60,994 nt of DNA, taken from the NCBI GenBank assembly GCA_035310325.1, contig DATGEH010000204.1, positions 1-60,994 of the forward strand. The letters are read 5' to 3'. This document shows, in pieces, positions 453 to 48,288 of the stretch (positions are counted from its first letter, which is position 1; each line of letters opens with the position of its first letter). The position numbers and the translations under genes were made by a program. The notes beneath the pieces were generated by a model. That model worked only from the letters and a program-made list of their open reading frames with translations, searched no databases and was not told the origin of the DNA. The stretch comes from Gaiellaceae bacterium. Lineage in GTDB: Bacteria > Actinomycetota > Thermoleophilia > Gaiellales > Gaiellaceae.

Positions 453-1694
453 CTAGGTCAGCGCAAGCGCGTCTTCGCTGACGCGCACGTGCCTCAGCGG
501 CGAGCGGAGCAGCGGGATGAACGACAGCGCGGTGCCGATCGCGCCGATGAGCAGCGCGTGCCGCAGACCGATGCTCGCACCGAGCGCTCCGCCGATCAGG
601 CCGCCGAAGGGGATGACGCCCCAGACGACGAAGCGCCGCGACGCGTTCGCACGCCCGAGCATCCGGTCCGGCGTGATCGTCTGGTAGAGGCTGATCCCGT
701 TGATGTTCCCGCCGATCGCGGTGTACCCGTACACGAGGCGTGCGATGAGAATGAACGGGATCGCGTAGCCGCCCCGTGCGAACGGGATGAGCAGGCTCGA
801 GAAGCCGTTGACGGCACCGAGCGCGATGATCGTCGGGCCGACGCCGATGCGGCGTGCGACCCGCGTCGCCGTCAACGCGCCGATCAGCGTCCCGATGTTC
901 GCGAGCGAGAAGACCAGCCCGATCGTTGCCGCGTGGAGATGGAGGTCGCGAACGGCGAACACGAGGAAGATCGAGAAGATCAGGATCGAGAAGAAGTTGT
1001 TCAGGGCGACCCAGAGCATCATCGACCGCAGGATCGGATTCCCGACGACATAGCGCAGTCCCTCCGCGATCTCGACACGCATGCGTCGCCGCGCCTCGAC
1101 GACCTTCTCCTCGACTCGGCGGATGCCTCCGAGCAGCAGCGCCGATCCGACGAAGCTCACCGCGTCGACGGCGATCGCATACGGCGCGGTGATCGCGCCG
1201 ACGAGGACCCCGGCGAGGCCCGGCCCGGCGAGTGCGGCGCCGGAGTTCGTCGTCTCGAGCTTCGAGTTCGCGTCGCCGAGCTCGTGCCGCTCGACGATGC
1301 TCGGCAGGATCGTCTGGTACGAGACGTCGAAGAAGACTGTGAGCGTTCCGGCCGTAAAGCCGACGACGAAGAGCTGCGCGAGCGTCAGCCCGCCGAATGC
1401 ATAGACGATCGGGATCGATCCGAGAGCGATTGCTCGGCCCCAGTCGGCGCCGATCATCAGCGGCCGGCGGCGGAGCCGGTCGACCCAAACTCCGGCCGGA
1501 AGTGCGAAGAGCACGAACGGGAGGACGTCCACGACGTTGAGCGCCGCAACTTGGAAGGTGCTGGCATGGACGACGAAGATCGCAGCGAGCGGCAGTGCGA
1601 GCCCGGTTACCTGGCTGCCGAGCTGGCTGACGCTCTGCGCGCTCCATAGGTGCAGGAAGTCGCGGTTTCGCCAGAGCGGGCCGCGCGGCCTCAA
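453..1694 (-). CDS. MFS transporter (EntS/MFS_3-like exporter)
   Basis: This is the C-terminal 413 codons of the 805-aa track ORF and is multi-TM (LWRNRDFLHLWSAQSVSQLG...). The proposed TTG start at 1694 overlaps the upstream TGA (TTGA). The start is uncertain. Confidence 0.75.
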   Translation of the reverse strand: MRPRGPLWRNRDFLHLWSAQSVSQLGSQVTGLALPLAAIFVVHASTFQVAALNVVDVLPFVLFALPAGVWVDRLRRRPLMIGADWGRAIALGSIPIVYAFGGLTLAQLFVVGFTAGTLTVFFDVSYQTILPSIVERHELGDANSKLETTNSGAALAGPGLAGVLVGAITAPYAIAVDAVSFVGSALLLGGIRRVEEKVVEARRRMRVEIAEGLRYVVGNPILRSMMLWVALNNFFSILIFSIFLVFAVRDLHLHAATIGLVFSLANIGTLIGALTATRVARRIGVGPTIIALGAVNGFSSLLIPFARGGYAIPFILIARLVYGYTAIGGNINGISLYQTITPDRMLGRANASRRFVVWGVIPFGGLIGGALGASIGLRHALLIGAIGTALSFIPLLRSPLRHVRVSEDALALT

Positions 1695-2950
1695 AGGAGC
1701 GCTTCGAACCGGGCGTTGTCGTCGAACGGGCCGATGAGCGCGAGGCGCAGCCGCTCGCCGGCGATGACGTCTTGTGCGACGCGCGCAACATCTTCCGCCG
1801 TCACGGCGGAGACGCCTGCGAGGACTTCTTCCGGATCGGGTGCGCGCTGTTCGAGAACCTCCTTGCGGAGCCCGAACATGATCAGGCCTTGCGGGCTCTC
1901 GAGCTGGAGGACGAAGCGGCCCTTCGCAAAGCTCCGCGCCTTCTCCAGCTCGTCCGCCGGAACGGATTCGGCCGCGATCTTCTTCAGCTCGGCGGCGATC
2001 GTGCTCACCGCTTCGTCGATTCGGTTGATGTCGACCCCCGCCTGCGCATACAACGACCCCGCATCGGTGTAGCTGTGGTTCGTGCCGAACACGTAATACG
2101 CGAGGCCGCGCCGCTCGCGTACTTCGGTGAAGAGTCGCGACGACATCCCGCCGCCGAGCACGGTCGCGAGCAACTGCAGCGCGTACCGGTCGGGATGCTC
2201 GAGCGGATAACTCGGCACGCCGAGGATGACGTGTGCCTGATCGGATTGCTTCGTGAAGACCTTCACGCGGCCGTTCGCGTACGGCAGGACCGGAGCGGGA
2301 TCGCCGGTATCCCCCGGCGCGAGGCCGCCCAGCAGCTCCTGTGCGCGCTCCACCGCGTCGTCGCCGATCCGGCCGGCGATGCCGACGACCATGCGCGACG
2401 GGTGATACCAGCGGTCGAGGTACGACATGAACGTCTCGCGTGTCGCCGCGCGCACCGTCTCCTTGCGGCCGATGATGTCCCAGCCGAGCGGCTGGTCGCC
2501 GTAGAGGAGATCCTCGTACACGCCGCCGATGTAGTCGCGCGGCGTGTCGAAGTACATGTTCATCTCCTCGACGATCACGCCTTTCTCGCGGTCGATCTCG
2601 TCGGCGTCGAAGCGCGAGTTGCGCAGCATGTCGACGAGCACGTCGAGCGCGACGTCGCGATGCTCGGCTGCACACTTGACGTAGTACGCCGTCGACTCCT
2701 TGCCGGTGAAGGCATTGAACTCGCCGCCGATCGCGTCGATCTCGCCGGCGATGTCGCGCGCGGTGGGGCGCCGTTCCGTTCCCTTGAAGAACATGTGCTC
2801 GGAGAAGTGCGCGATCCCGTTCGTCTCCGGCGTCTCGTACCGCGAGCCGGCGGCGAGCATGACCATGCACGTGACCGACTGCGCATGGTCGAGGTTCGCC
2901 GTGAGGACGCGGAGGCCGTTGTCGAGGACGGTGCGCTCGAACGTGCTCAT
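1691..2950 (-). CDS. M16-family zinc peptidase (insulinase-like)
   Basis: HxxEH zinc motif (GIAHFSEHMFFKG). 419-aa ORF whose ATG overlaps the upstream stop (ATGA). Confidence 0.85.
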   Translation of the reverse strand: MSTFERTVLDNGLRVLTANLDHAQSVTCMVMLAAGSRYETPETNGIAHFSEHMFFKGTERRPTARDIAGEIDAIGGEFNAFTGKESTAYYVKCAAEHRDVALDVLVDMLRNSRFDADEIDREKGVIVEEMNMYFDTPRDYIGGVYEDLLYGDQPLGWDIIGRKETVRAATRETFMSYLDRWYHPSRMVVGIAGRIGDDAVERAQELLGGLAPGDTGDPAPVLPYANGRVKVFTKQSDQAHVILGVPSYPLEHPDRYALQLLATVLGGGMSSRLFTEVRERRGLAYYVFGTNHSYTDAGSLYAQAGVDINRIDEAVSTIAAELKKIAAESVPADELEKARSFAKGRFVLQLESPQGLIMFGLRKEVLEQRAPDPEEVLAGVSAVTAEDVARVAQDVIAGERLRLALIGPFDDNARFEALL

Positions 2951-3330
2951 GCGCTCAGCCGTTTTCGCCAGCGGTCGGGGATCTCCGCGCTCTTCGCATT
3001 CGCGTAGTCGTAGCCGACGAGCACGCTCTTCGCCTCGGCGACGAGCCGCCCGTCGGCGCGGAGCTCGTACTCGAGCTCGAAGCTCTTCGTCCCGAGCCGG
3101 GACGGTCGGACGCCGATCTCGACGACCTCGCCGACCGAGAGCGGCGAGCGGAAGTCGATCTCCGTGCGCGCGAGGATCACGTCTTCCAGCGGCATCTGCT
3201 CGTCACGGCCGAACCACGCGAGCCGGGCCTGTTCGAGGTACGTCGAGTACACGGCGTTGTTGACGTGGCCCATGCCGTCGAGGTCGTTGAAGCGGACGGT
3301 CTCGCGATGCACGAACGGAAACCCTTCCAT
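2947..3330 (-). CDS. Hotdog-fold acyl-CoA thioesterase (4HBT/YbgC-like)
   Basis: MEGFPFVHRETVRFNDLDGMGHVNNAVYSTYLEQAR, 127 aa. The ATG at 3330 shares one nt with the upstream TGA. Confidence 0.8.
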   Translation of the reverse strand: MEGFPFVHRETVRFNDLDGMGHVNNAVYSTYLEQARLAWFGRDEQMPLEDVILARTEIDFRSPLSVGEVVEIGVRPSRLGTKSFELEYELRADGRLVAEAKSVLVGYDYANAKSAEIPDRWRKRLSA

Positions 3331-4286
3331 CAGACGCCGGCGAGGATCTCGGTTTCCTTCTCGCGCGTGAGCGTCGGGCGCTGCTCGCCCGCCTCGAGGC
3401 TCCACGCGAGCGTGTCGCGCGCGGTCTCCTCGAGCGGGCGGAACGTGATGCCCGCCGCGAGCGCGCGGGAGATGTCGGCCTGCAGGATTCCGGCGTGCTC
3501 GTCGCCCGGAAGCCAGAGCGGCAGCTCCATCCACGGGCCGACGCCGGCGTCGAGCAGCGTCTGGTCGCCGACCCACACGAGGTTGCCGCCGCCGCTGCGC
3601 TCGAGCGTCTCGCCGAGCGTCAGCGGCTCGGCGGGGCCGGTGGCATTGAAGATCCCGCCGGTCCGCGTCTCGGCGAGCCGGACGAGGAAGGCGCCGAGGT
3701 CGCGCGCGTCGATGAGCTGCACGCGCTGCGACGGCGAGCCGGGCGCGAGCACGTCGCCGCCTTCGGCGAGGCGGCGCGGCCAGTACGTGAAGCGGTCGGT
3801 GGGATCGTGCGGCCCGACGATGAGGCCCGCGCGCGCGATCGACGCACGGTCGCCGAAGACGTCGAGCACGGCGCGCTCGGAGCCGGCCTTCAGCCCGCCG
3901 TACTGCTCTGCATCGAACTCGTCCGGCTCCGGGTCCGGCGGATCGAAGAGCGGCGAGCCCTCGTGGATCGGCTGCGACGTGTCCGAGTACACGGAGATCG
4001 TCGACACGAAGACGTAGTGCACGACGGAGTCGACGAGGGCCTCAGCACGCCGGCGCGTGTGTCGCGGCAGCTGCGTCGGGTCGAGGTCGACCGCGGCGTC
4101 CCACTCGCGTCCGCGCAACGCATCGAGGTCGCCGGTGAGGTCGCCGCGCAGCTTCTCGACGTTCGGGTAGAGGTCGGGGTTCGTCTGGCCGCGGTTGAAG
4201 AGCGTGACGTCGTGGCCTGCGGCGAGCGCGGCATCCACGACGCCGCGGCCGAGGAACTTCGTCCCCCCAAGGACGAGGAGTCTCAC
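3330..4286 (-). CDS. NAD(P)-dependent epimerase/dehydratase family protein
   Basis: Rossmann N-terminus (V)RLLVLGGTKFLGRGVV. The GTG start at 4286 overlaps the upstream TGA (GTGA). Confidence 0.75.
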   Translation of the reverse strand: MRLLVLGGTKFLGRGVVDAALAAGHDVTLFNRGQTNPDLYPNVEKLRGDLTGDLDALRGREWDAAVDLDPTQLPRHTRRRAEALVDSVVHYVFVSTISVYSDTSQPIHEGSPLFDPPDPEPDEFDAEQYGGLKAGSERAVLDVFGDRASIARAGLIVGPHDPTDRFTYWPRRLAEGGDVLAPGSPSQRVQLIDARDLGAFLVRLAETRTGGIFNATGPAEPLTLGETLERSGGGNLVWVGDQTLLDAGVGPWMELPLWLPGDEHAGILQADISRALAAGITFRPLEETARDTLAWSLEAGEQRPTLTREKETEILAGV

Positions 4287-14137: not shown

Positions 14138-14248
14138 CGGCGGGGTCAGACCCCGCTGCGCGGTAAAGGCGGGGTCAGACCCCTGCGCAGCGGAAAGGCG
14201 GGGTCAGACCCCGCGCAGCGAACGGCGGGGTCTGACCCCGCGCAGCGG
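14136..14248. repeat. Four tandem ~28-nt units, each carrying the palindrome GGGGTC(A/T)GACCCC
   Basis: Units start near 14136, 14165, 14194 and 14221: AA(A/C)GGCGGGGTCWGACCCC..GCGCAGCGG. There are no spacers between units. Confidence 0.9.
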
Positions 14249-14251
14249 CAC

Positions 14252-14424
14252 GGCGGAAAGAGAAAGGCCCCGGCTGCGGCTCCGGGGCCTTTCTGAGAGG
14301 CGCGCCCATCGTGTGCGGCTCCGGAGATTCGGCTCTGCGGCTCAGCCGCATCTCCGTTCTACCGCCGGATGTGCCGGCGCGCCCCCTGCGAACCTGAGCC
14401 TGGCGTCGGCCGCGGTTGCAAGGT
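14252..14424 (-). ncRNA. Candidate stand-alone small RNA (~170 nt), family unknown
   Basis: Bounded by a near-consensus promoter (14431-14459) and a hairpin with a T-rich tail (14261-14294) on the minus strand. It contains internal pairing (two GGCGCGCC copies, GGAGAT/ATCTCC, GCGGC-TGA-GCCGC) and no credible ORF. Confidence 0.5.
14261..14294 (-). terminator. Intrinsic terminator hairpin (13-bp stem, 8-nt loop)
   Basis: agaaaggccccgg-ctgcggct-ccggggcctttct. On the minus strand the stem runs into TTTCTCTTTCC; on the plus strand it is followed by gagagg. Confidence 0.7.
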
Positions 14425-14459: not shown

Positions 14460-14590
14460 GTGGCTCGGTCAAGTAGTCCTCGCTGCGCACGGTTGACCGC
14501 CAATCGCGGCTATTCATAACCCTTTTGGGTGATGGCCGGAGTGGCCGGCTTGATCTTTGGTGAAGCGTAGGGTTGACTTCCCTTGAGCCT

Positions 14591-15931
14591 ATGAATCACG
14601 ACGCCGCCCTTCGCCGCCAGGCTGTCCCGACCTCGCTCGGGCTCGGCGAGCGCCTGCGCCAGCTCCGCATCGCTGCCGGGCTGACCCAGACCGAGCTCGC
14701 GGGCGACCGCTGCTCGAAGGAATACGTGTCGCAGATCGAGCGCGGGAAGACGCGTCCGACGCGAGAGACGATCGAGTGGCTCGCGGTCCGGCTCGGCGTC
14801 GACGCAGGCTTCCTCGCGAACGGCGTCGCCACCGACGAGCGCGCGCGGCTCGACGCCGGCCTCACCCGCGCCGAGGCGCTGCTCGAAGTTCCCCGCAACG
14901 AAGATGCAGCGGAAGCGTTCGCGACGCTCATAGCGTCGGCGCGAGCGACGGGCCTGCAAGACCTGCTGGTGCGCGCATTGCGTGGCGCGGGTCGCGCGCA
15001 GATGCGCATCGGCGGGCTCCGCCAGGCGCTCGACCTCCTGAACGAGGCGCGCGGAATCGCCGAAGCCGAGACCTTCTCCGATGTCGAACGCGCCGAGGTG
15101 CTCCTCACGCTCGGCGTCTGCCGGTATCAGCTGAACAGCACGCAGACCGCGATCGGGCTGCTGAACGAGGCGCTCGCGCTCGCCGACCGGGCAGAGCTTC
15201 CGTCCGACTCGCTGCGTTCCCAGATTCTGTCGTGGCGGTCCCGCTGCTGGCGCCGCCAGCGCGACTACGAGGCCGCGCGGGAGGACATCGAGCGCGCATT
15301 GCAGCTCGCCGAGGACGCCGCCGATCCCGCGACGATCGGAGCCGCGTACTTCCAGGCGTCGCTCGTCGCCGACCGCGAAGGGCACTGGGTGCTCGCGCGC
15401 ACATACGCCGAGCGCGCCCGCTCGGCGTACGAAGAGCTCTCCGACCGCGTCTTCGTCGGCCAGCTGACGAACAACCTCGGCGCGATGAACTTCCTGCTCG
15501 GCAAGACCGACGAGGCGATCGCGCTGCTCAAGGAGGCGTTCGCCATCGCGCTCGAGACCGGTCGCGACACCGATGCCGGCCGCGCGGTCTCGTCCCTCGC
15601 GCAGGTGCATCTGCGCACCGGGAATGTCGAGCAGGCGGAGGAGCAGGCGCGCCATGCGCTGCGGCTCCTCGACGGCCGCGAGGACTATCTCGACGAGATC
15701 GGCAGCGTGCAGCTGGTGCTCGGCCGCGCGCTGCTCGAGCAGGGCCGGCTCGACGAGGCGGAGGAAGCCCTGGCGGCGGGCGAGGCGAGCTACGAACAGC
15801 TCGGCTCGGCGAGCCATCGCGCGGTGGCATGGATCGCGCGCGGCGATCTCGCGGCTCGGCGCGGCGATGACAGGCTTTCGGCGCAGCTCTACCGGAACGC
15901 TGCAGAGGCGTTGCAGGACGTCAGGTTCTAG
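14591..15931 (+). CDS. XRE-family HTH regulator with a long TPR-like C-terminal domain
   Basis: HTH LGERLRQLRIAAGLTQTELAG..YVSQIERGKTRPT followed by ~370 aa of helical repeats. The ATG at 14591 is preferred over the TTG at 14573. Confidence 0.8.
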   Translation: MNHDAALRRQAVPTSLGLGERLRQLRIAAGLTQTELAGDRCSKEYVSQIERGKTRPTRETIEWLAVRLGVDAGFLANGVATDERARLDAGLTRAEALLEVPRNEDAAEAFATLIASARATGLQDLLVRALRGAGRAQMRIGGLRQALDLLNEARGIAEAETFSDVERAEVLLTLGVCRYQLNSTQTAIGLLNEALALADRAELPSDSLRSQILSWRSRCWRRQRDYEAAREDIERALQLAEDAADPATIGAAYFQASLVADREGHWVLARTYAERARSAYEELSDRVFVGQLTNNLGAMNFLLGKTDEAIALLKEAFAIALETGRDTDAGRAVSSLAQVHLRTGNVEQAEEQARHALRLLDGREDYLDEIGSVQLVLGRALLEQGRLDEAEEALAAGEASYEQLGSASHRAVAWIARGDLAARRGDDRLSAQLYRNAAEALQDVRF

Positions 15932-15950: not shown

Positions 15951-16061
15951 GTGAAGAAGAAGTTGATGATGATTTTGCTGGCGGCAGTCGTGATCGCGAT
16001 CGCGGTCGCGAGGGCGCACGGCATCGAGCCGGCAGGCTTGAGCGACGGCGGGTACTTCTAG
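15951..16061 (+). CDS. Unannotated 36-codon ORF: signal-peptide-like pro-peptide MKKKLMMILLAAVVIAIAVARAHGIEPAGLSDGGYF
   Basis: GGAGG lies 8 nt upstream of the GTG. 33 of 36 codons end in G/C. It starts 20 nt after the regulator stop and is followed by a hairpin. Confidence 0.55.
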   Translation: MKKKLMMILLAAVVIAIAVARAHGIEPAGLSDGGYF

Positions 16062-16073
16062 TCGGTCGTTTGC

Positions 16074-16109
16074 GGACTGAGCGCGCTGCGGTCCTGTGAC
16101 GCTCAGTCC
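16074..16109. terminator. Hairpin with 10-bp stem and 16-nt loop between convergent genes
   Basis: ggactgagcg...cgctcagtcc, with no clear T-tail. Confidence 0.45.
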
Positions 16110-16140
16110 GGCGGGTAGGGGAAAAGATCTGCGGTGTTGT

Positions 16141-28158: not shown

Positions 28159-29019
28159 CTACGCTGCGAGTGTTGCGCCGGCGGGGATGAGGCCCCGGCC
28201 GTAGCCCACGAGGAGGTACGCGCTCGCGAGCCCGGCCCATTCGCCGTACCGCGCGAGCAGCTCTTCCGTCTCCGCGCCTTCGACCTCGCGGCCGAGCTGT
28301 GCCCGCAGGAGCTTGATCAGCCCGAGGTCGCCGACGAGCCCGCGGTCGTAGCGGCCGAGCCCTTCGAGGCAGACGACGCCGACCGACCACGGCCCCAGCC
28401 CGCGCTCGCGCCCGAGGCGCGACATGACGACGGCGCTCGGCTGGTCGTGCAGACGCTCGAGCTCGAGCGAGCGGCAGATGGAGACGAGCGCTGCCGCGCG
28501 GCGCGCATGCAGGCCGAGCGCGCGCAGGCGAGCCGGCGCGAGCACGCCGAGGTCGGCGGTCGTCGGCGACACGTGCAGTCGACTCGGGCCGGCGGCGCAC
28601 AGCGTCCGCACGATCGTCTGCTCCAGGCGGCGTGCACGCTTCGACTCGATCAGCTGCCCGCAGAACGCGCGCAGGAGCGCATGCGCGACGGTCGGCACGC
28701 GCAACGGGCGCAGGCCGCGCAGCTCCCGCGATGCGCGGCCGAGCAGCGCGTCGTCACGGACGTGGACGAGAAAGTCGGAGTGATCGTCGTCGAGCGCGAG
28801 GATCCAGCGCAGTCGCTCGGCGCCTACCGCGGAATCGGCCCGAATCGTCACCGTTCCATTCGGCGACTGCCGCGCGGCCGCCATTTCGACGCCCCCGTCG
28901 ACTGCGAGCGCCTGCGTCAGCACGCCGTCGCGAAACGTCCTGGTCGCATCGCTCGCGATCCGTGCCGACAGGGCGAGCGAGTACGGCCCGCGTGGCGTGA
29001 CCGCGAGCTCGACGCTCAA
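28159..29019 (-). CDS. HhH-GPD DNA glycosylase (AlkA-like 3-methyladenine glycosylase II)
   Basis: HhH region LGPWSVGVV followed by GDLGL. The proposed TTG start at 29019 overlaps the TGA of the upstream regulator (TTGA). The start is uncertain. Confidence 0.65.
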   Translation of the reverse strand: MSVELAVTPRGPYSLALSARIASDATRTFRDGVLTQALAVDGGVEMAAARQSPNGTVTIRADSAVGAERLRWILALDDDHSDFLVHVRDDALLGRASRELRGLRPLRVPTVAHALLRAFCGQLIESKRARRLEQTIVRTLCAAGPSRLHVSPTTADLGVLAPARLRALGLHARRAAALVSICRSLELERLHDQPSAVVMSRLGRERGLGPWSVGVVCLEGLGRYDRGLVGDLGLIKLLRAQLGREVEGAETEELLARYGEWAGLASAYLLVGYGRGLIPAGATLAA

Positions 29020-30335
29020 CGCTCGGCGTGCGCTTCTACCCGCGTCGCGCGCAGCATGAGCTCCGTCGCGCGATCGAGGATCTCGGCCGCCTCGTGGTCG
29101 CGGCCGATCTTCTGGAGGAGGTGACCCCACGAGCGGCACGTCTGCGCCGCCTCGCGCAGGAGCCCCTGATGCTCGTGCAGCTGCGCCGATCGGCGGTACG
29201 ACTCCTCCGCGCCCTCGTCGCCGGAAAGGGCAAGGGCGTTGGCGCGTGCGGCGAGCGCATAGCCCTCGTCGGCCGGGCTCAGCCCTTCGATGGCGAGGGC
29301 GCGCTCTGCGAACAGCCGCGCGTTCTCGCCATCGCCGCGGGCGGCCGCAATCCGTGAACGTAGGATCTTCATCTCGGCGCGATCCTCGACGGACGGCGCG
29401 GCGCCGAACAGTTTCGTCGCGTTGTTCAGATGCAACTCCGTCGCATCGGCGTCCTCGCGCGTGATGGTGATCCGCGCTGCGAGGAGATGCGCGCGGGCGA
29501 GGTGGAAGGAGTCGTCGGTTGCCTCGAGCAGCGCGATCGCCCGGCGCACGTTCGCAAGGGCGACGCTCTCGCGACCCTCCTTGTGCGCGAGCCTTGCCAT
29601 CGACCAGTACAGGCGAACGCGCATGTAGGGGTCGTTCGTGTCCTTCACGAGCTCGAGCGCGTGCTCGACCACCGCTTCGGCCCCCGCGAGATCACCGCTG
29701 TCGGTGAGCGCATAGCTCAGCAGCGTCGCGTACCGGGCTGCCAGCGTGGGCTCGCCTGCGTCCTCGGAGCCCTGCACGCAGCGCTCGAGCAGAATCGCGG
29801 CTTCGCGCACGCGGCCGTCGCCGGCGTATGCGCGGCCCAGGGCCGTGTAGATCTCGAAATGCTCGACGGGACGGAAGGGCTCGTCCGCGACTGCTGCCTC
29901 GAGCAGCGAGGTGGCGCGGTCGAACTGGCCGCGCTCCTGCGCGAGCGCGGCGAGAGCGGCCCGCGCGCGTGCGGCGGCTGCGAGGTCGGCGGCAGCGAGG
30001 GCGTCGGCGAGGACGGCTTCGAGCCCCGTGTCGATGCCCTCGGTTTCGCCGAGACGTACGGCAAGCTCGAGCTCGGAGAGACGCAGCTCGCGCGCCTCCG
30101 CGGAGTCGAGGCTCGAGCCGGTTTCGAGGTAGTCGGCGGTGACGCCGAGCTTCACCGCAAGCTTGCGCAGCGCCTTGACGGAGGGCTGGCGCGTCCCGGC
30201 TTCGATGCGGGAGATATACGCGTACGAAACACCCGGAGCAGCAAGCTCACGCTGTGACAGACCCCGCTCTAGCCGCAGTCGCTTGAGTCGCTGCCCGATC
30301 GTCTCGCCCGCGGCAGGCGATTGGTCGGAAGCCAT
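29016..30335 (-). CDS. XRE-family HTH regulator with a long TPR-like C-terminal domain (paralog-like to 14591-15931)
   Basis: HTH IGQRLKRLRLERGLSQRELAA..YAYISRIEAGTRQPS followed by ~370 aa of helical repeats. 439 aa. Confidence 0.8.
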   Translation of the reverse strand: MASDQSPAAGETIGQRLKRLRLERGLSQRELAAPGVSYAYISRIEAGTRQPSVKALRKLAVKLGVTADYLETGSSLDSAEARELRLSELELAVRLGETEGIDTGLEAVLADALAAADLAAAARARAALAALAQERGQFDRATSLLEAAVADEPFRPVEHFEIYTALGRAYAGDGRVREAAILLERCVQGSEDAGEPTLAARYATLLSYALTDSGDLAGAEAVVEHALELVKDTNDPYMRVRLYWSMARLAHKEGRESVALANVRRAIALLEATDDSFHLARAHLLAARITITREDADATELHLNNATKLFGAAPSVEDRAEMKILRSRIAAARGDGENARLFAERALAIEGLSPADEGYALAARANALALSGDEGAEESYRRSAQLHEHQGLLREAAQTCRSWGHLLQKIGRDHEAAEILDRATELMLRATRVEAHAER

Positions 30336-30444
30336 TCGCCAGCGATTCTGAACCCTTTGGGGAGATTCGTCAATGGAACCTCCGCCGTCTTGTCAACTCC
30401 TCATGCTTCCTAGTTGACCTGCGTCAGCTGGAAAGGAGGGAAAA

Positions 30445-30543
30445 GTGCGCCGCTACGTCCTGTACGCGAAGCTCGTGACGATCGTGCTCGTTCTGAGCGC
30501 GATCGCGATCTTCATCGCCGAGGCCCCTTGGGGCCCGGACTGA
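30445..30543 (+). CDS. Unannotated 32-codon ORF: hydrophobic pro-peptide MRRYVLYAKLVTIVLVLSAIAIFIAEAPWGPD
   Basis: GGAGG lies 5 nt upstream of the GTG. 30 of 32 codons end in G/C. It is divergent from the regulator at 30335 and followed by a hairpin. Confidence 0.5.
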   Translation: MRRYVLYAKLVTIVLVLSAIAIFIAEAPWGPD

Positions 30544-30553
30544 GCCTCCTGAC

Positions 30554-30589
30554 CAGCGGGCGGGCGCCGGTGACGGCATCCGCCCGCTG
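30554..30589 (+). terminator. Hairpin with 10-bp stem and 16-nt loop after the mini-ORF (terminator or attenuator)
   Basis: cagcgggcgg...ccgcccgctg, no T-tail. It sits 15 nt before the next ATG. Confidence 0.4.
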
Positions 30590-30604
30590 TACCCTCCCGC
30601 GCCA

Positions 30605-32026
30605 ATGACGGTCGTCGAGCTGGCTGTCTACGCGCTGCTCCTGGCCGTTGCTGCCGCCGCAGTCTGGCGTCGGCCGCTCGTCGCCCTCTACCTCTTCGTC
30701 GTCGGCCTCGCGCTGCACAACGCCGCGATGGCCGCGCTCTACGCCGCCGGCGTGCGCGGGAGCACCCTCACCGCGATCACGGCGTGGAAGGAGATCCTTC
30801 TCGCTGTCGCCCTCGCGCGCGTGATACGAGATGCGGTCCGCGAGCGGCGTCTTCCGTTCCGCCCTGGGATCGTCGATGCGCTCGCGCTCGCCTTCGCATT
30901 CCTCGCGTGCGTATACGCGCTCATCCCGCAGTCGGCGCTCGGCGGGCTCGCCGATCGGCATGCCGTCGCGCTCGGGCTTCGCCACGACGTCTTACCGGTC
31001 GGCGCGTTCTTCCTCGGCCGTGCGCTCGTCGTCGGCCGCGACGACGTGCGCCGGATCGCGTGGACGCTGCTCGGCACCGCCGCCTTCGTCGCGACGCTCG
31101 GGATCGTCGACGTCTACGCGGTGCCGATCGGCTGGTGGCGGACGAACGGCGTCGTCGACTACTTCCACAAGCACCTCGGCTACCACTACAACGGCACCGG
31201 CGGGCTGCCGGAGAACTTCATCTACAACGTCGGCGGCGACAAGCCGTTCCTCCGCCGCCTCGTGTCGACCTTCCTCAGCCCGCTCGCGTCGGGCTACCTC
31301 ATGGTCGTCGCGCTGCTGCTCGCGCCGCGTCGGCGCATCGCGATTCCGCTCGCGGTCGTCGCGTTCGCGGGCCTGCTGTTCACGTTCTCGCGCTCGTCGC
31401 TCGTCGCGCTCGCCGGCGGGCTCGTCGTGCTCGGCGTTCTGCGCCGCCGCACACCCGAGCTCGCGGCAGCGGTCGTCGTCATCGCGATCGCCGTCGGCTG
31501 GGCGCACGTGTTCCCGAAGATCGCGCCGACGGGCCGCTTCACGAAGGCCGACCTCACGTTCCAGCATCAACACGCGGGCAACTCGACCGCGAGCTTCTCC
31601 GCGACGAGCTCGAGCGAGCCGTCGCTGCACGAGCACTGGCTGGCGCTCAAGGACGGCATCCGCACGATGATTCATCACCCGCAGGGCTATGGGCTCGGCA
31701 ATGTCGGACAGACCGCGTCGCGCACGGGCACGCCGCTGAAGGCGGGTGAGTCGAACTACACCGAGCTCGGCGTCGAGCTCGGCGTGCTCGGCGCGCTGCT
31801 GTGGGCCGCGTGGGGGCTCGCGGTGCTCTGGGGGCTCGTGCGGGCGCGGGCGGCGACGATGACGGCGGCGTTCGCCGCGATCCTCGCCCTCGCGGTGCAG
31901 ACGGATGTCATCGGCGACCCGTGGGTCGCGTACGTCGTCTGGGGCCTCGCCGGCGCACTCCTCTTGAAGACGCGTCCGCAGGAGCGTCTTGCGGGTGCGG
32001 CAGCGCCCACCGTACCGTTGTCCTGA
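30605..32026 (+). CDS. O-antigen ligase/polymerase-like (Wzy_C family) membrane protein
   Basis: 473 aa, polytopic, with an FTFSRSSLVALAGG-type region and a large loop. Confidence 0.65.
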   Translation: MTVVELAVYALLLAVAAAAVWRRPLVALYLFVVGLALHNAAMAALYAAGVRGSTLTAITAWKEILLAVALARVIRDAVRERRLPFRPGIVDALALAFAFLACVYALIPQSALGGLADRHAVALGLRHDVLPVGAFFLGRALVVGRDDVRRIAWTLLGTAAFVATLGIVDVYAVPIGWWRTNGVVDYFHKHLGYHYNGTGGLPENFIYNVGGDKPFLRRLVSTFLSPLASGYLMVVALLLAPRRRIAIPLAVVAFAGLLFTFSRSSLVALAGGLVVLGVLRRRTPELAAAVVVIAIAVGWAHVFPKIAPTGRFTKADLTFQHQHAGNSTASFSATSSSEPSLHEHWLALKDGIRTMIHHPQGYGLGNVGQTASRTGTPLKAGESNYTELGVELGVLGALLWAAWGLAVLWGLVRARAATMTAAFAAILALAVQTDVIGDPWVAYVVWGLAGALLLKTRPQERLAGAAAPTVPLS

Positions 32027-32482
32027 GTGACAACAGCACGATTGCTCTTCCTCGCCGCGCTCGCGGCTGGGCTGCTCGCGGTCTTTCTCGCCGTGCGCCC
32101 GCACCGGGCGCCCGTCCTGCCGCGCACCGCAGGCGTCGCGAGCGCGGCGGTGACCCAGGCGAACATTCGCGCAACGATCTGCCGCGCCGGCTGGACGAAG
32201 ACGATTCGTCCTCCCGTCGCGTACACGAATGCGCTCAAGCTGAAGCAAATGCGCCAGTACGGCGAGCGCGGGGCGCCGTCGGCGTATCAGGAGGACCACC
32301 TGATCAGCCTCGAGCTCGGCGGCGATCCGACCGACCCGCGCAACCTTTGGCCGGAGCCGTATCCGCGTGCGGCTTCGATGGATCAGATCGAGAACGAGCT
32401 GAACCACGCGGTCTGCGCAGGGAAGCTCTCGCTGCAGGCGGCGCAGGCCGAGGAGTCGAAGATCAAGCACACGCGGGGGTAA
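32027..32482 (+). CDS. Membrane-anchored/secreted HNH-like (beta-beta-alpha-Me) nuclease-fold protein
   Basis: N-terminal hydrophobic anchor. YQEDHLISLELGGDPTDPRNLWPEP resembles an HNH core. The GTG directly follows the upstream TGA. Confidence 0.5.
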   Translation: MTTARLLFLAALAAGLLAVFLAVRPHRAPVLPRTAGVASAAVTQANIRATICRAGWTKTIRPPVAYTNALKLKQMRQYGERGAPSAYQEDHLISLELGGDPTDPRNLWPEPYPRAASMDQIENELNHAVCAGKLSLQAAQAEESKIKHTRG

Positions 32483-46548: not shown

Positions 46549-48288
46549 ATGCCCGACGGCGAGAGCGTCCTCTTCTCGACCAACCGATCCGGCCAGTTCA
46601 ACCTCTGGCGCGTCGGCGTCGAGGGCGGCGAACCCGAGCAGCTGACGCACTTCACCGACAACTCGGTGCGCGGGGTCGCCGTGCGGACCGACGGCGCCAT
46701 CCTCGTCCAGGCCGACCGCGACGGCGACGAGTTCCACCAGCTCTATCTGCTCCCCGCCGGCGGCGGCGAGCTCGAGCAGCTCACCGACCGCGAACAGGTC
46801 CAGCACGAGATCTCCGGCGGCGCGTGGGCCAAGGACGGAAAGAACTTCGTCTTCTCGGCCAACCTGCGGAAGCCCACCGACGGCGAGGTCTTCCTCTGGG
46901 ACGGAAGCGCGGCCGAGCCGCGCTATCTCTTCGGCGAGGGGAAGTACGCGTTCGCCATGGGCTTCTCGCCCGACGGCTCGACCGTGCTGGCGATCGACGC
47001 GCGCTCGAACACCGACTTCTCGCTCCACACGATCGACGTCGAGTCCGGCGACGCGACCGAGCTGACGCCGCACGACGGAGAGGCGAAGTACTTCCCCGGC
47101 CCGTGGGCGGCGGACGGCTCCGGTGTCTACGTTCTCACCGACGAGGGGCGCGAGTTCACCGGCCTTGCGTTCAAGCCGCTCGACGGCCCGCTCGAGTGGA
47201 TCGAAACGCCGGGGCGCGAGATCGAGGAGATCGCCGGCTCGAAGGACGGTCGCGTCGTCGCCTGGGTCGAGAACGACGACGGCTGGGCCGTTCTCCGCAT
47301 TCGGGACGTCGAATGCAACGTCGACCTGCCGGCGCCGAAGTTGCCGAAGGGCACGACGTCGTACCTCGGCTCCGGCATCTCCGTCTCGGCCGACGGCTCA
47401 CGCGTCGCGCTCGTCTGGGATCAGCCGACACGCCCCGCCGAAGTCTTCGTCGTCGAGACGGCGACGGGGGACGCGCGCGCGGTCACCGAGAGCAGGGAGC
47501 CGGCGCTCACCGAGCTCGACCTGCAGGCGCCCGACCTCATCCGTTACGAGAGCTTCGACGGCCGCATGATCCCGGCGTGGCTGTACAGGCCGGCCGGCAA
47601 CGGCCGTTCGCCGTTCGCCGTTCTCATCCACGGCGGCCCGGAGTCGCAGGAGAAGACGATGTACCGCCCGTACATCCAGTACCTGCTCTCCCGCGGGATC
47701 GGCGTGCTCGCGACCAACATCCGCGGCTCCACCGGGTACGGCAAGACATACCAGAAGCTCATCCACCACGACTGGGGAGGCGGCGACCTCGAGGACTGGC
47801 GTCACGCGGCCGAGTGGCTGAAGGCGCAGCCGTTCGTCGACGGCGACCGGCTTGCCGTCTTCGGCGGCTCGTACGGGGGATTCGCGACGCTCACCTGCGT
47901 CACGCGGCTGCCGGAGTACTGGCGCGCGGCCGTCGACATCTTCGGCCCTTCGAACCTCGTGACGTTCGCGCGCGCCGTGCCGCCGCAGTGGCTGCGCTTC
48001 ATGGCGCAATGGGTCGGAGACGCCGAGACGGAGCAGGACTTCCTGCTCGAGCGCTCGCCGATCACGTACGTCGACCAGGTGCGCGCGCCGCTGCTCGTCA
48101 TCCAGGGCGCCAAGGACCCGCGCGTCGTCAAGCCCGAGTCTGACCAGATGGTCGAGCGGCTCCGCGAGCTCGGCCGCGACGTCGAATACGTCGTCTTCGA
48201 CGACGAAGGCCACGGCTTCACGCGCTACCCGAACGAGGTCCGGGCGTACCGGCTGACGTGCGAGTGGCTCGAGCGAAATCTTTCCTAG
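46549..48288 (+). CDS. S9-family serine peptidase (acylaminoacyl-peptidase / prolyl oligopeptidase type)
   Basis: Beta-propeller N-half, GGSYGG nucleophile motif, C-terminal DDEGHGF. Family-like residues continue in frame upstream to 46477 without a canonical start. Confidence 0.8.

Follow-up and report, generated by a model that had tools for sequence, protein, structure and literature searches.

The DNA studied here is a stretch of 60,994 nucleotides (nt) (hereafter the window, of about 61 kb and with a GC content of 70%), which the names carried by its homologues and the related loci identify as DNA of a Gaiellaceae-type actinobacterium (Thermoleophilia). It contains a 32-codon open reading frame (ORF), here called the mini-ORF, whose peptide carries a Pro-Trp-Gly-Pro (PWGP) motif close to its end, and which lies divergently upstream of the gene for a regulator with an XRE-type helix-turn-helix (HTH) domain and tetratricopeptide repeats (TPR). 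Judged from related loci, the mini-ORF is a translated gene that is genetically coupled to this regulator, and it may encode its cognate peptide ligand. In general terms, the locus consists of the following elements (Table 1): (i) the regulator gene and, downstream of it on the same strand, a 286-aa gene; (ii) an intergenic region with promoter elements for both strands; (iii) the mini-ORF with its Shine-Dalgarno (SD) sequence; (iv) a GC-rich hairpin; and (v) the genes for a Wzy_C membrane protein (hereafter Wzy) and for a protein referred to as p151. Elsewhere in the window there is another regulator with a peptide ORF of its own (locus A).

Table 1. Features of the regulator/mini-ORF locus, with the peptide ORF of locus A (positions in the window)
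Feature	Position	Strand	Remarks
286-aa gene downstream of regulator	28159..29019	-	AlkA-like match weak, 28 bits vs cut-off 229
Regulator, XRE-type HTH + ~9 TPR-like repeats, candidate peptide receptor	29016..30335	-	439 aa
Regulator promoter	30345..30373	-	-35 TTGACG, 17-nt spacer, -10 CAGAAT, 9 nt before ATG
-35-like box of putative peptide promoter	30390..30395	+	TTGTCA in window; consensus of relatives CTTGACA
Perfect 7-bp inverted repeat GTCAACT-N13-AGTTGAC	30392..30418		exact; lineage-specific
SD sequence GGAGG	30435..30439	+	5 nt upstream of GTG
Mini-ORF (Form 1 PWGP peptide)	30445..30543	+	32 codons, GTG start, TGA stop, reads MRRYVLYAKLVTIVLVLSAIAIFIAEAPWGPD
GC-rich hairpin, terminator-like, no U tract	30554..30589	+	10 nt after mini-ORF stop
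TACCCT, -10-like TANNNT hexamer	30590..30595	+	9 nt before Wzy ATG
Wzy_C (O-antigen ligase/polymerase-like) membrane protein, likely target	30605..32026	+	473 aa
p151, hydrophobic N-terminus	32027..32482	+	151 aa, directly after Wzy stop; no Pfam/NCBIfam match
Locus A peptide ORF	15951..16061	+	36 aa, SD GAGGAGG, third-position GC (GC3) 0.92, MKKKLMMILLAAVVIAIAVARAHGIEPAGLSDGGYF

The regulator was confirmed as an HTH and TPR protein divergent from the mini-ORF. It matches HTH_3 (E=1.4e-13), HTH_31, TPR_MalT and several TPR families of Pfam, and has more than 2800 homologues, of Gaiellaceae type. Its AlphaFold2 (AF2) model (predicted local distance difference test, pLDDT, 89.9) consists of the HTH and 18 helices, with no membrane segment. 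The best profile match among PDB sequences is PlcR (2qfc), over the HTH and the first TPRs (E=7.9e-9). In Pfam and NCBIfam, no curated family reaches its cut-off for the regulator, and no match to Rgg, NprR, AimR or RopB was obtained.

Related loci were collected in two ways: (i) a regulator-anchored set, in which a profile of the regulator yielded 80 loci from GTDB species genomes, all of them Gaiellaceae/Thermoleophilia metagenome-assembled genomes (77 of these loci are assessable, the other three being truncated); and (ii) a peptide-anchored set, in which all metagenome contigs were scanned with the pattern [VLM]xLG[ST]EPWGP, resulting in 44 matching stretches and 30 confirmed loci. A search with the single 32-aa peptide (phmmer against 1.84 billion representatives) returned three matches with E<1e-3, the query being too short for this figure to be informative.

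The mini-ORF itself, its GTG start, the GGAGG 5 nt upstream and the G/C at 30 of its 32 third codon positions, all of them features of the original prediction, are exact on the window. It had already been gene-called as a 32-aa ORF on two metagenome contigs, and homologous mini-ORFs are intact at about 100 independent loci of related genomes, nearly all of them (the six-codon ones described below included) preceded by a strong SD sequence. Among 82 unique intact sequences of the 32-codon class, substitutions decrease from the third to the first to the second codon position (49872, 42530 and 27569, respectively), and synonymous single-nucleotide codon differences outnumber non-synonymous ones (20222 vs 16945). 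In the same sequences P-W-G-P is invariant, with variable codons for the first proline (CCC/CCG/CCT), the glycine (GGC/GGG/GGT) and the second proline (CCG/CCC/CCA). Because the substitutions are of the coding type and PWGP is kept despite this codon variation, the mini-ORF is, on the evidence of its substitutions, a translated gene under purifying selection and not a compositional artefact.

The possibility of a chance ORF in GC-rich intergenic DNA deserves a word, since high-GC genomes yield many spurious ORFs of high GC3 and dozens of them are listed in this region. Nevertheless, in the six reading frames of about 720 kb of DNA fetched around related loci, PWG followed by a stop was found about 85 times on-site and only twice off-site, the latter being the number due to chance. 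Together with the intact homologues, their coding substitutions, their SD sequences and their fixed position, this leaves a chance origin with a negligible probability; conservation excludes it. Likewise, CCN-TGG-GGN was ruled out as an RNA or DNA motif because its frame is in every case that of a start codon with SD sequence and of a stop close by, and because elsewhere in the ORF the substitutions are of the coding type.

Peptide forms and coupling to the regulator

The homologous peptides can be sorted into three forms. Form 1, to which the window peptide belongs, comprises peptides of 31-36 aa (43 of 53 have PWG at residue 28) whose regulators are at least 54% identical to that of the window. 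These peptides follow the pattern M-[LS]-R-x-x-[LF]-Y-V-[RK], about 15 hydrophobic residues and then P-W-G-P-x-stop, with, counting back from PWGP, R at -25, a conserved Y at -21, R/K at -19, a conserved L at -11, small residues at -7 and -3, and an acidic residue at -1 or -2, just ahead of the motif ((E/D)PWGP-x-stop). Their last residue is variable yet clade-specific. Form 2 peptides (about 28 aa) end in ...ALNASSPWGP-stop, and their regulators are about 47-50% identical to that of the window. Form 3, present at 10 loci of a single regulator clade, consists of no more than six codons, M-[T/A/Y/W/H]-P-W-G-[S/C/A/E]-stop, preceded by a strong SD sequence, GGAAGGAGG; the nucleotide pattern is ATG-x-CCN-TGG-GGN-x-stop, with third-position variation in the codons for Pro and Gly.

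At 57 loci, the Form 1 and Form 2 ORFs (28-36 aa) encode a basic N-region that is followed by a hydrophobic core (about 15 residues), a secretion signal as judged from composition, and the hydrophobic stretch ends four residues before PWGP. The basic N-region, the hydrophobic core and the short C-terminal tail that had been proposed from the window alone are therefore supported, the tail being conserved. By this comparison the hydrophobic leader is dispensable in the Form 3 clade and, since Form 3 is the hexapeptide alone, a route through signal peptide and cleavage is not the universal mechanism. Hence, of the pro-peptide idea put forward originally, the genuine small gene paired with a regulator stands, but the hydrophobic "pro" part is missing from Form 3. 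The best-supported reading of the aligned peptides is that PWG(P) is the conserved active core. Rare variants of this core occur in divergent regulators: PWVPY (L026), PVGPF (L057) and PWPP (L063). Frequently, two to three mini-ORF copies stand in tandem, each with an SD sequence of its own. As for individual loci, L025 has a segmental duplication (about 1600-3900) that contains a second copy of the peptide along with fragments of Wzy and of the regulator, both truncated. At L067, a transposase-like ORF of 383 aa is inserted between the regulator and Wzy, breaking the mini-ORF region.

The stop codons of the mini-ORFs are biased. TAG terminates 76 of the 82 Form 1 ORFs (93%) and TAA seven of the 10 Form 3 ORFs; the long ORFs of the same loci end in TGA (59%), TAG (35%) and TAA (6%). 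The window mini-ORF is among the few copies which end in TGA (30541-30543). This avoidance of TGA may reflect a need for an exact C-terminus, high expression or a termination linked to release factor 1 (RF1).

In 67 of the 77 assessable regulator-anchored loci the mini-ORF lies divergently upstream of the regulator, so that the peptide ORF is indeed kept in relatives. In the opposite search direction, the regulator was found divergently upstream in 29 of the 30 peptide-anchored loci (in the remaining one, the contig extends a mere 11 bp upstream), and Wzy is downstream wherever the contig is long enough to show it. Most Form 2 loci are devoid of Wzy and p151, and their mini-ORF is still located beside the regulator; it is then followed by glyoxalase/VOC and 2-oxoacid oxidoreductase genes, which in the window are located after p151. 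When 77 regulators are arranged in a neighbour-joining tree, each of the three peptide forms falls into a separate regulator clade, and the residues that flank PWG track the sub-clades. Since Form 2 loci keep the pair without Wzy and the peptide-anchored scan finds the regulator, the mini-ORF is, as far as gene order and phylogeny indicate, genetically coupled to the regulator, not to Wzy, and co-diverges with it. The proposed pairing of regulator and small pro-peptide gene is thus a tight linkage in both search directions.

Conservation across these 77 regulators is highest in the HTH; in the TPR domain it has a clear peak in the central repeats, where helix 236-252 (pYmRVRLYWSmARlahk) has at least 90% identity in 10 of its 17 columns across all three peptide forms. 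The helix-by-helix alternation of conservation that would be a sign of a concave groove is weak. Such a conserved central helix is at most suggestive of a site that matches the conserved PWG core.

Intergenic DNA, hairpin and flanking genes

The region between the regulator and the mini-ORF measures 109 nt (30336-30444). The regulator promoter is its sole sigma-70-like match, with none expected in shuffled sequences, and its boxes, CGTCAA and ATTCTG/ATTGTG, are kept in relatives. In the alignment of 26 intergenic regions, the arrangement CTTGACA, N17, TG-n-TTCGKT is kept on the peptide strand in most Form 1 loci; in the window, a promoter scan of the intergenic region found no canonical -10 on this strand. 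Back-to-back GTCAA/TTGAC boxes are widely conserved, and several GTCA/TGAC half-sites overlap both -35 elements, which makes these boxes candidate operators. The inverted repeat GTCAACT-N13-AGTTGAC, to which attention had originally been drawn, is exact, but among the aligned regions only the window and its closest relative (L003) carry it, and by this alignment it is not a conserved operator candidate. Directly before the mini-ORF SD sequence, many relatives (L008, L015, L016, L021, L025, L027, L030, L040 and L050) have a small hairpin, GTCCCTCG-N3-CGAGGGAC, which recurs before each tandem copy and is absent from the shorter 5' region of the window.

The hairpin that follows the mini-ORF exists as well; however, the originally proposed fold (10-bp stem, 16-nt loop) is inferior to one with 16-nt arms (88% complementary) and a 4-nt loop (-33.9 kcal/mol, z = -2.6 vs shuffles). 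It lacks a U tract and does not pass a scan for canonical terminators. Across loci it is found 7-20 nt after the mini-ORF stop, and RNAalifold (30 sequences) gives 13 pairs, five of them with compensatory changes, and an invariant basal stem. One sub-clade, with peptides of the type GE[MLFS]PWGP, has no hairpin, and its mini-ORF stop is about 26 nt from the Wzy start.

The Wzy gene (Wzy_C Pfam match above its cut-off, E=7.6e-11) keeps its synteny with the regulator in the majority of loci of Forms 1 and 3, and p151 is syntenic in most loci. Wzy has no SD sequence, and a TANNNT hexamer stands 6-7 nt before its start in most of 83 loci (6-9 nt if the window is included), in all clades. The hexamer itself differs by clade (TACCCT, TACGCT, TACCGT, TACTGT, TAGTCT, TAATGT) with its distance kept, and it is present in L070 and L077, which have neither mini-ORF nor hairpin. 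In actinobacterial leaderless genes, a TANNNT -10 element ends 6-7 nt before the start codon, which is also the transcription start. Because the hexamer is found at a fixed distance from a start without SD sequence, that is, in the known geometry of leaderless genes, Wzy appears to have its own leaderless-type (or near-leaderless) promoter right after the hairpin. The hairpin is probably a terminator or insulator of the peptide transcript rather than an attenuator of Wzy. The attenuation of read-through into Wzy, which had been suggested for this hairpin, is doubtful in view of this promoter and of the sub-clade where the hairpin is missing.

On the other side of the regulator, the 286-aa gene overlaps the regulator stop codon by 4 nt, which suggests co-transcription; the AlkA-like name refers to DNA-3-methyladenine glycosylase 2.

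Locus A comprises a regulator (14573-15931; the gene-caller version, of 446 aa, starts at the ATG at 14591), which is 27% identical to the regulator described above (locus B), and a peptide ORF that starts 19 nt downstream on the same strand and is followed by a hairpin at about 16076-16115. Of four relatives examined (regulators 77-89% identical), three (L113, L115, L116) keep a signal-like N-terminus and an invariant GLSDGGY[F/W]-stop. The pair at locus A is thus real and conserved, and by its gene order, which is the canonical one of PlcR/PapR or NprR/NprX, it forms another receptor/propeptide-like pair, unrelated to the first. The claim that both loci share one geometry does not hold, as the ORF of locus A is downstream on the same strand, not divergent. 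Neither the PWGP peptide nor the locus A peptide nor p151 is matched by any Pfam or NCBIfam model.

Some other sequences of the window may be mentioned here. A CCCTTTGGGG-like motif shared by both regulators, with one copy (AACCCTTTGGGGAGAT) in the promoter spacer of the locus B regulator (30351-30366) and another (AACCCTTTTGGGTGAT) upstream of the locus A regulator (14518-14533), was rejected: it is not conserved in most locus B relatives and, in consequence, it is probably coincidental. After a TetR gene there are four tandem copies, resembling repetitive extragenic palindromic (REP) elements, of GGCGGGGTCAGACCCCGC, each of them a small palindrome (14140-14250); a strong palindromic, bidirectional terminator-like hairpin with T-rich flanks, GGCCCCGG...CCGGGGCC (14262-14296), comes after them.

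Possible roles of the peptide

The reading that we favor, with a probability of roughly 0.5, is that the product of the mini-ORF is the cognate peptide ligand of the divergent XRE-HTH/TPR regulator, both of them forming an RRNPP-like module whose layout comes closest to those of Rgg/SHP and RopB/SIP. According to this reading, the regulator would bind at the two back-to-back -35 elements, to the GTCAA/TTGAC boxes overlapping them. The peptide gene would be transcribed from its own promoter and translated from its strong SD sequence, the transcript mostly stopping at the GC-rich hairpin. In Forms 1 and 2, the basic N-region and the hydrophobic core would direct export, and a short C-terminal (E/D)-PWGP-x peptide would be freed; in Form 3, the hexapeptide M-x-PWG-x would be made directly, like leaderless communication peptides (LCPs). 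The PWG peptide might then bind the conserved central TPR repeats and switch the regulator, which would feed back on the peptide promoter and act on the neighbouring Wzy_C/p151 surface-glycan genes.

This reading is supported by the coupling of the mini-ORF to the regulator, by coding selection, by the propeptide-like build of Forms 1 and 2 and by the HTH and TPR build expected of a receptor. The existence of two paralogous receptors in the window, each with a distinct small peptide, strengthens it. Also in its favor are the frequent tandem copies, as multiple propeptide genes are known in Rap systems (PMC9765709), and the precedent for both a propeptide and an ultrasmall ORF that Rgg/SHP and RopB/LCP offer within one family (PMC10518010).

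A number of observations weigh against a ligand role. We infer every step beyond the genetic coupling (export, cleavage, uptake, TPR binding and control of Wzy), and the connection of regulator and peptide with Wzy expression is suggested by synteny. RRNPP pheromones usually diversify into pherotypes, whereas the PWG(P) core hardly varies even between regulators of as little as 46% identity. An oligopeptide permease was looked for in the 61-kb window and none was found; moreover, the Form 3 hexapeptide is not hydrophobic like known LCPs and has no evident exporter. Foldseek searches against the PDB place Rap (rank 21), PlcR (rank 23) and MalT domain III (rank 35) behind generic TPR proteins such as CTPR, LGN/Pins and OGT, and, since they are not discriminating, homology of the regulator to RRNPPA receptors is not established. 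Finally, the avoidance of TGA and the likeness of PWG-P to RAG-P arrest motifs are hints of a role in translation.

Such a role would be that of a cis-acting leader or ribosome-arrest peptide, in which PWG-P or PWG-x-stop stalls the ribosome and, by modulating the adjacent hairpin, brings about termination, read-through or promoter occlusion downstream. This explanation, which we consider unlikely, would suit a conserved motif placed one or two codons from the stop in all three forms, a six-codon version that keeps just the SD sequence, PWG and the stop, a conserved hairpin shortly past that stop and the strong avoidance of TGA, the stop codon read only by release factor 2 (RF2). The terminal G-P also recalls the SecM RAG-P and the RAPG/RAPP motifs (PMC10987492). 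But the published hallmarks of monitoring substrates, i.e., sec/yidC genes downstream, a spacer of >30 aa and an SD sequence masked by a stem-loop (PMC10987492), were not found here. Besides, Wzy is preceded, also where the mini-ORF is missing, by a TANNNT -10 of its own at the spacing of leaderless genes, a whole sub-clade keeps the ORF without the hairpin, and the mini-ORF remains with the regulator when the downstream gene changes. A leader would need neither tandem copies nor a conserved signal-like N-terminus, and the core variants PVGP, PWPP and PWVP are tolerated.

Still less credible, to the point of being improbable, is a small single-pass membrane protein (N-in, C-out) with its EPWGPx tail outside. 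Such a protein would modulate the Wzy_C-like enzyme or form one of its subunits, or it would serve the regulator as a membrane tether or sensor. While the positive-inside N-terminus, the hydrophobic stretch with its conserved Y (-21), R/K (-19) and L (-11) and, in Form 1, the adjoining polytopic membrane protein agree with it, the Form 3 hexapeptide keeps PWG without any hydrophobic segment, Form 2 loci are found without Wzy and p151, the stretch of about 15 residues has the length of a signal peptide and is short for a transmembrane helix, and the most conserved part is the five-residue tail, not the helix. The original alternative of a small membrane protein leading the O-antigen-ligase gene is, for these reasons (persistence of the ORF without Wzy, existence of a hexapeptide form), weakened.

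Two other roles were considered and rejected. In PEP-CTERM and sortase-type sorting signals, the order of the elements is the reverse of the basic-hydrophobic-motif order found here. A glycosylation substrate of a Wzy_C/PglL-like enzyme does not fit, given that the terminal residue is not consistently Ser/Thr and that Forms 2 and 3 are a misfit. At 46549-48288 (+), 16 kb from the locus, the window encodes a member of the S9 prolyl oligopeptidase family (E=1e-42 to Peptidase_S9). Enzymes of the S9 family cut short peptides after proline, and this one could in principle act on PWGP-x.

If the peptide is indeed the ligand of the regulator, a broader proposal, which we advance only tentatively, is that Gaiellales have genuine RRNPP-type systems, the first outside Bacillota, with a PWG propeptide/hexapeptide family that controls a Wzy-type glycan gene and with the GLSDGGY[F/W] family of locus A. 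Peptide signalling through cytoplasmic receptors has been treated as a speciality of Firmicutes, Actinomycetota being thought to use small molecules (PMC10075063). In that case, the logic of RRNPPA would extend to another phylum, in abundant and mostly uncultured soil Gaiellaceae, with two paralogous pairs in one genome, propeptide as well as six-codon variants, a new peptide code (PWGP) and a link to cell-surface glycan genes. Were the arrest explanation true instead, the six-codon form, a PWG leader whose stop is biased towards RF1, would add a new member to the regulatory nascent peptides. In any case, anchoring the search on TPR regulators uncovers ultrasmall ORFs that annotation misses.

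Comparison with known systems

RRNPPA systems consist of a cytoplasmic TPR receptor and an adjacent small propeptide gene, the mature signal having 5-8 residues, and they are encoded by Bacillota and their mobile elements (PMC10518010, PMC10075063, PMC12700828). Once outside the cell, the mature peptide (5-10 aa) of such a system is taken up again through Opp and lodges in the TPR groove, where it alters the activity of the receptor. The receptor build (TPR-type domain, N-terminal HTH) is present in the regulator according to Pfam and the AF2 model, and an adjacent propeptide gene with a signal-like N-terminus is present in Forms 1 and 2 and lacking in Form 3. The taxonomic range differs, as all loci belong to Gaiellaceae/Thermoleophilia (Actinomycetota). 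In the literature searched, no report was found of an RRNPP-type system in Actinomycetota, nor of a PWGP motif. The NsdA family of Streptomyces (NF053720) consists of actinobacterial TPR-like regulators and is the sole named actinobacterial match over most of the regulator (16-320); however, with 23 bits vs a cut-off of 75 the regulator is not a member, and we know of no peptide partner described for NsdA.

The arrest peptides SecM, MifM, VemP and ApdA/ApdP/ApcA resemble the mini-ORF in being small upstream ORFs with an N-terminal hydrophobic segment, a G-P C-terminal motif and a stem-loop before the next gene, and a signal or transmembrane segment at the N-terminus plus a conserved C-terminus are also seen in Forms 1 and 2. 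In monitoring substrates, however, (i) the downstream genes are sec/yidC, instead of a Wzy_C-like gene or, in Form 2, glyoxalase/VOC; (ii) the spacer exceeds 30 aa, compared with about 5 aa here, where the whole peptide has 28-36 aa; (iii) the downstream SD sequence is sequestered, whereas Wzy has none and has an apparent promoter of its own; and (iv) the ORF goes with the downstream gene, the mini-ORF being linked to a regulator instead.

PlcR/PapR and NprR/NprX share with the present system the HTH and TPR receptor and a peptide whose active part, in those systems, corresponds to the last 5-8 residues of a secreted propeptide. But their propeptide gene is downstream on the receptor strand, as in locus A, and not divergent. 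The similarity to PlcR is weak (profile E about 1e-8) and the fold search is not specific. NprR is similar to the regulator in size and number of repeats.

The streptococcal Rgg/SHP systems resemble the locus described here in several respects: a cytoplasmic XRE-HTH and TPR-type receptor stands next to a divergent peptide gene of about 22-32 codons, the peptide begins with basic residues, continues with a hydrophobic body and ends in a conserved C-terminus, with an acidic residue conserved as well, and the targets are located downstream. They differ in that they belong to Bacillota, their receptor has about 285 aa, vs about 440 aa and about nine repeats here (with no Rgg_C-type match), and their C-terminal motif is aliphatic, vs the polar/aromatic E-PWGP-x. 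The peptides of those systems are processed by Eep/PptAB and imported by Opp.

The Rgg/RopB family includes clades with SHP propeptides of 22 aa as well as clades with LCPs of 8-10 aa, which are translated from ultrasmall SD-bearing ORFs between the receptor and its target gene (PMC10518010). RopB/SIP and other LCP systems differ from the present one in their strongly hydrophobic peptides of 8-10 aa and in receptors that are not detectably orthologous: the regulator has no Rgg/RopB match, and the Form 3 peptide has 6 aa, contains P, W and G and is not hydrophobic. In turn, an ultrasmall SD-bearing ORF in the intergenic region between receptor and target, giving a mature peptide without leader, is what the Form 3 relatives have (10 loci), the window copy being of Form 1. 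Thus, the dichotomy between LCP and SHP within one receptor family mirrors that between Form 3 and Forms 1/2, in the same layout of receptor, divergent ORF and target.

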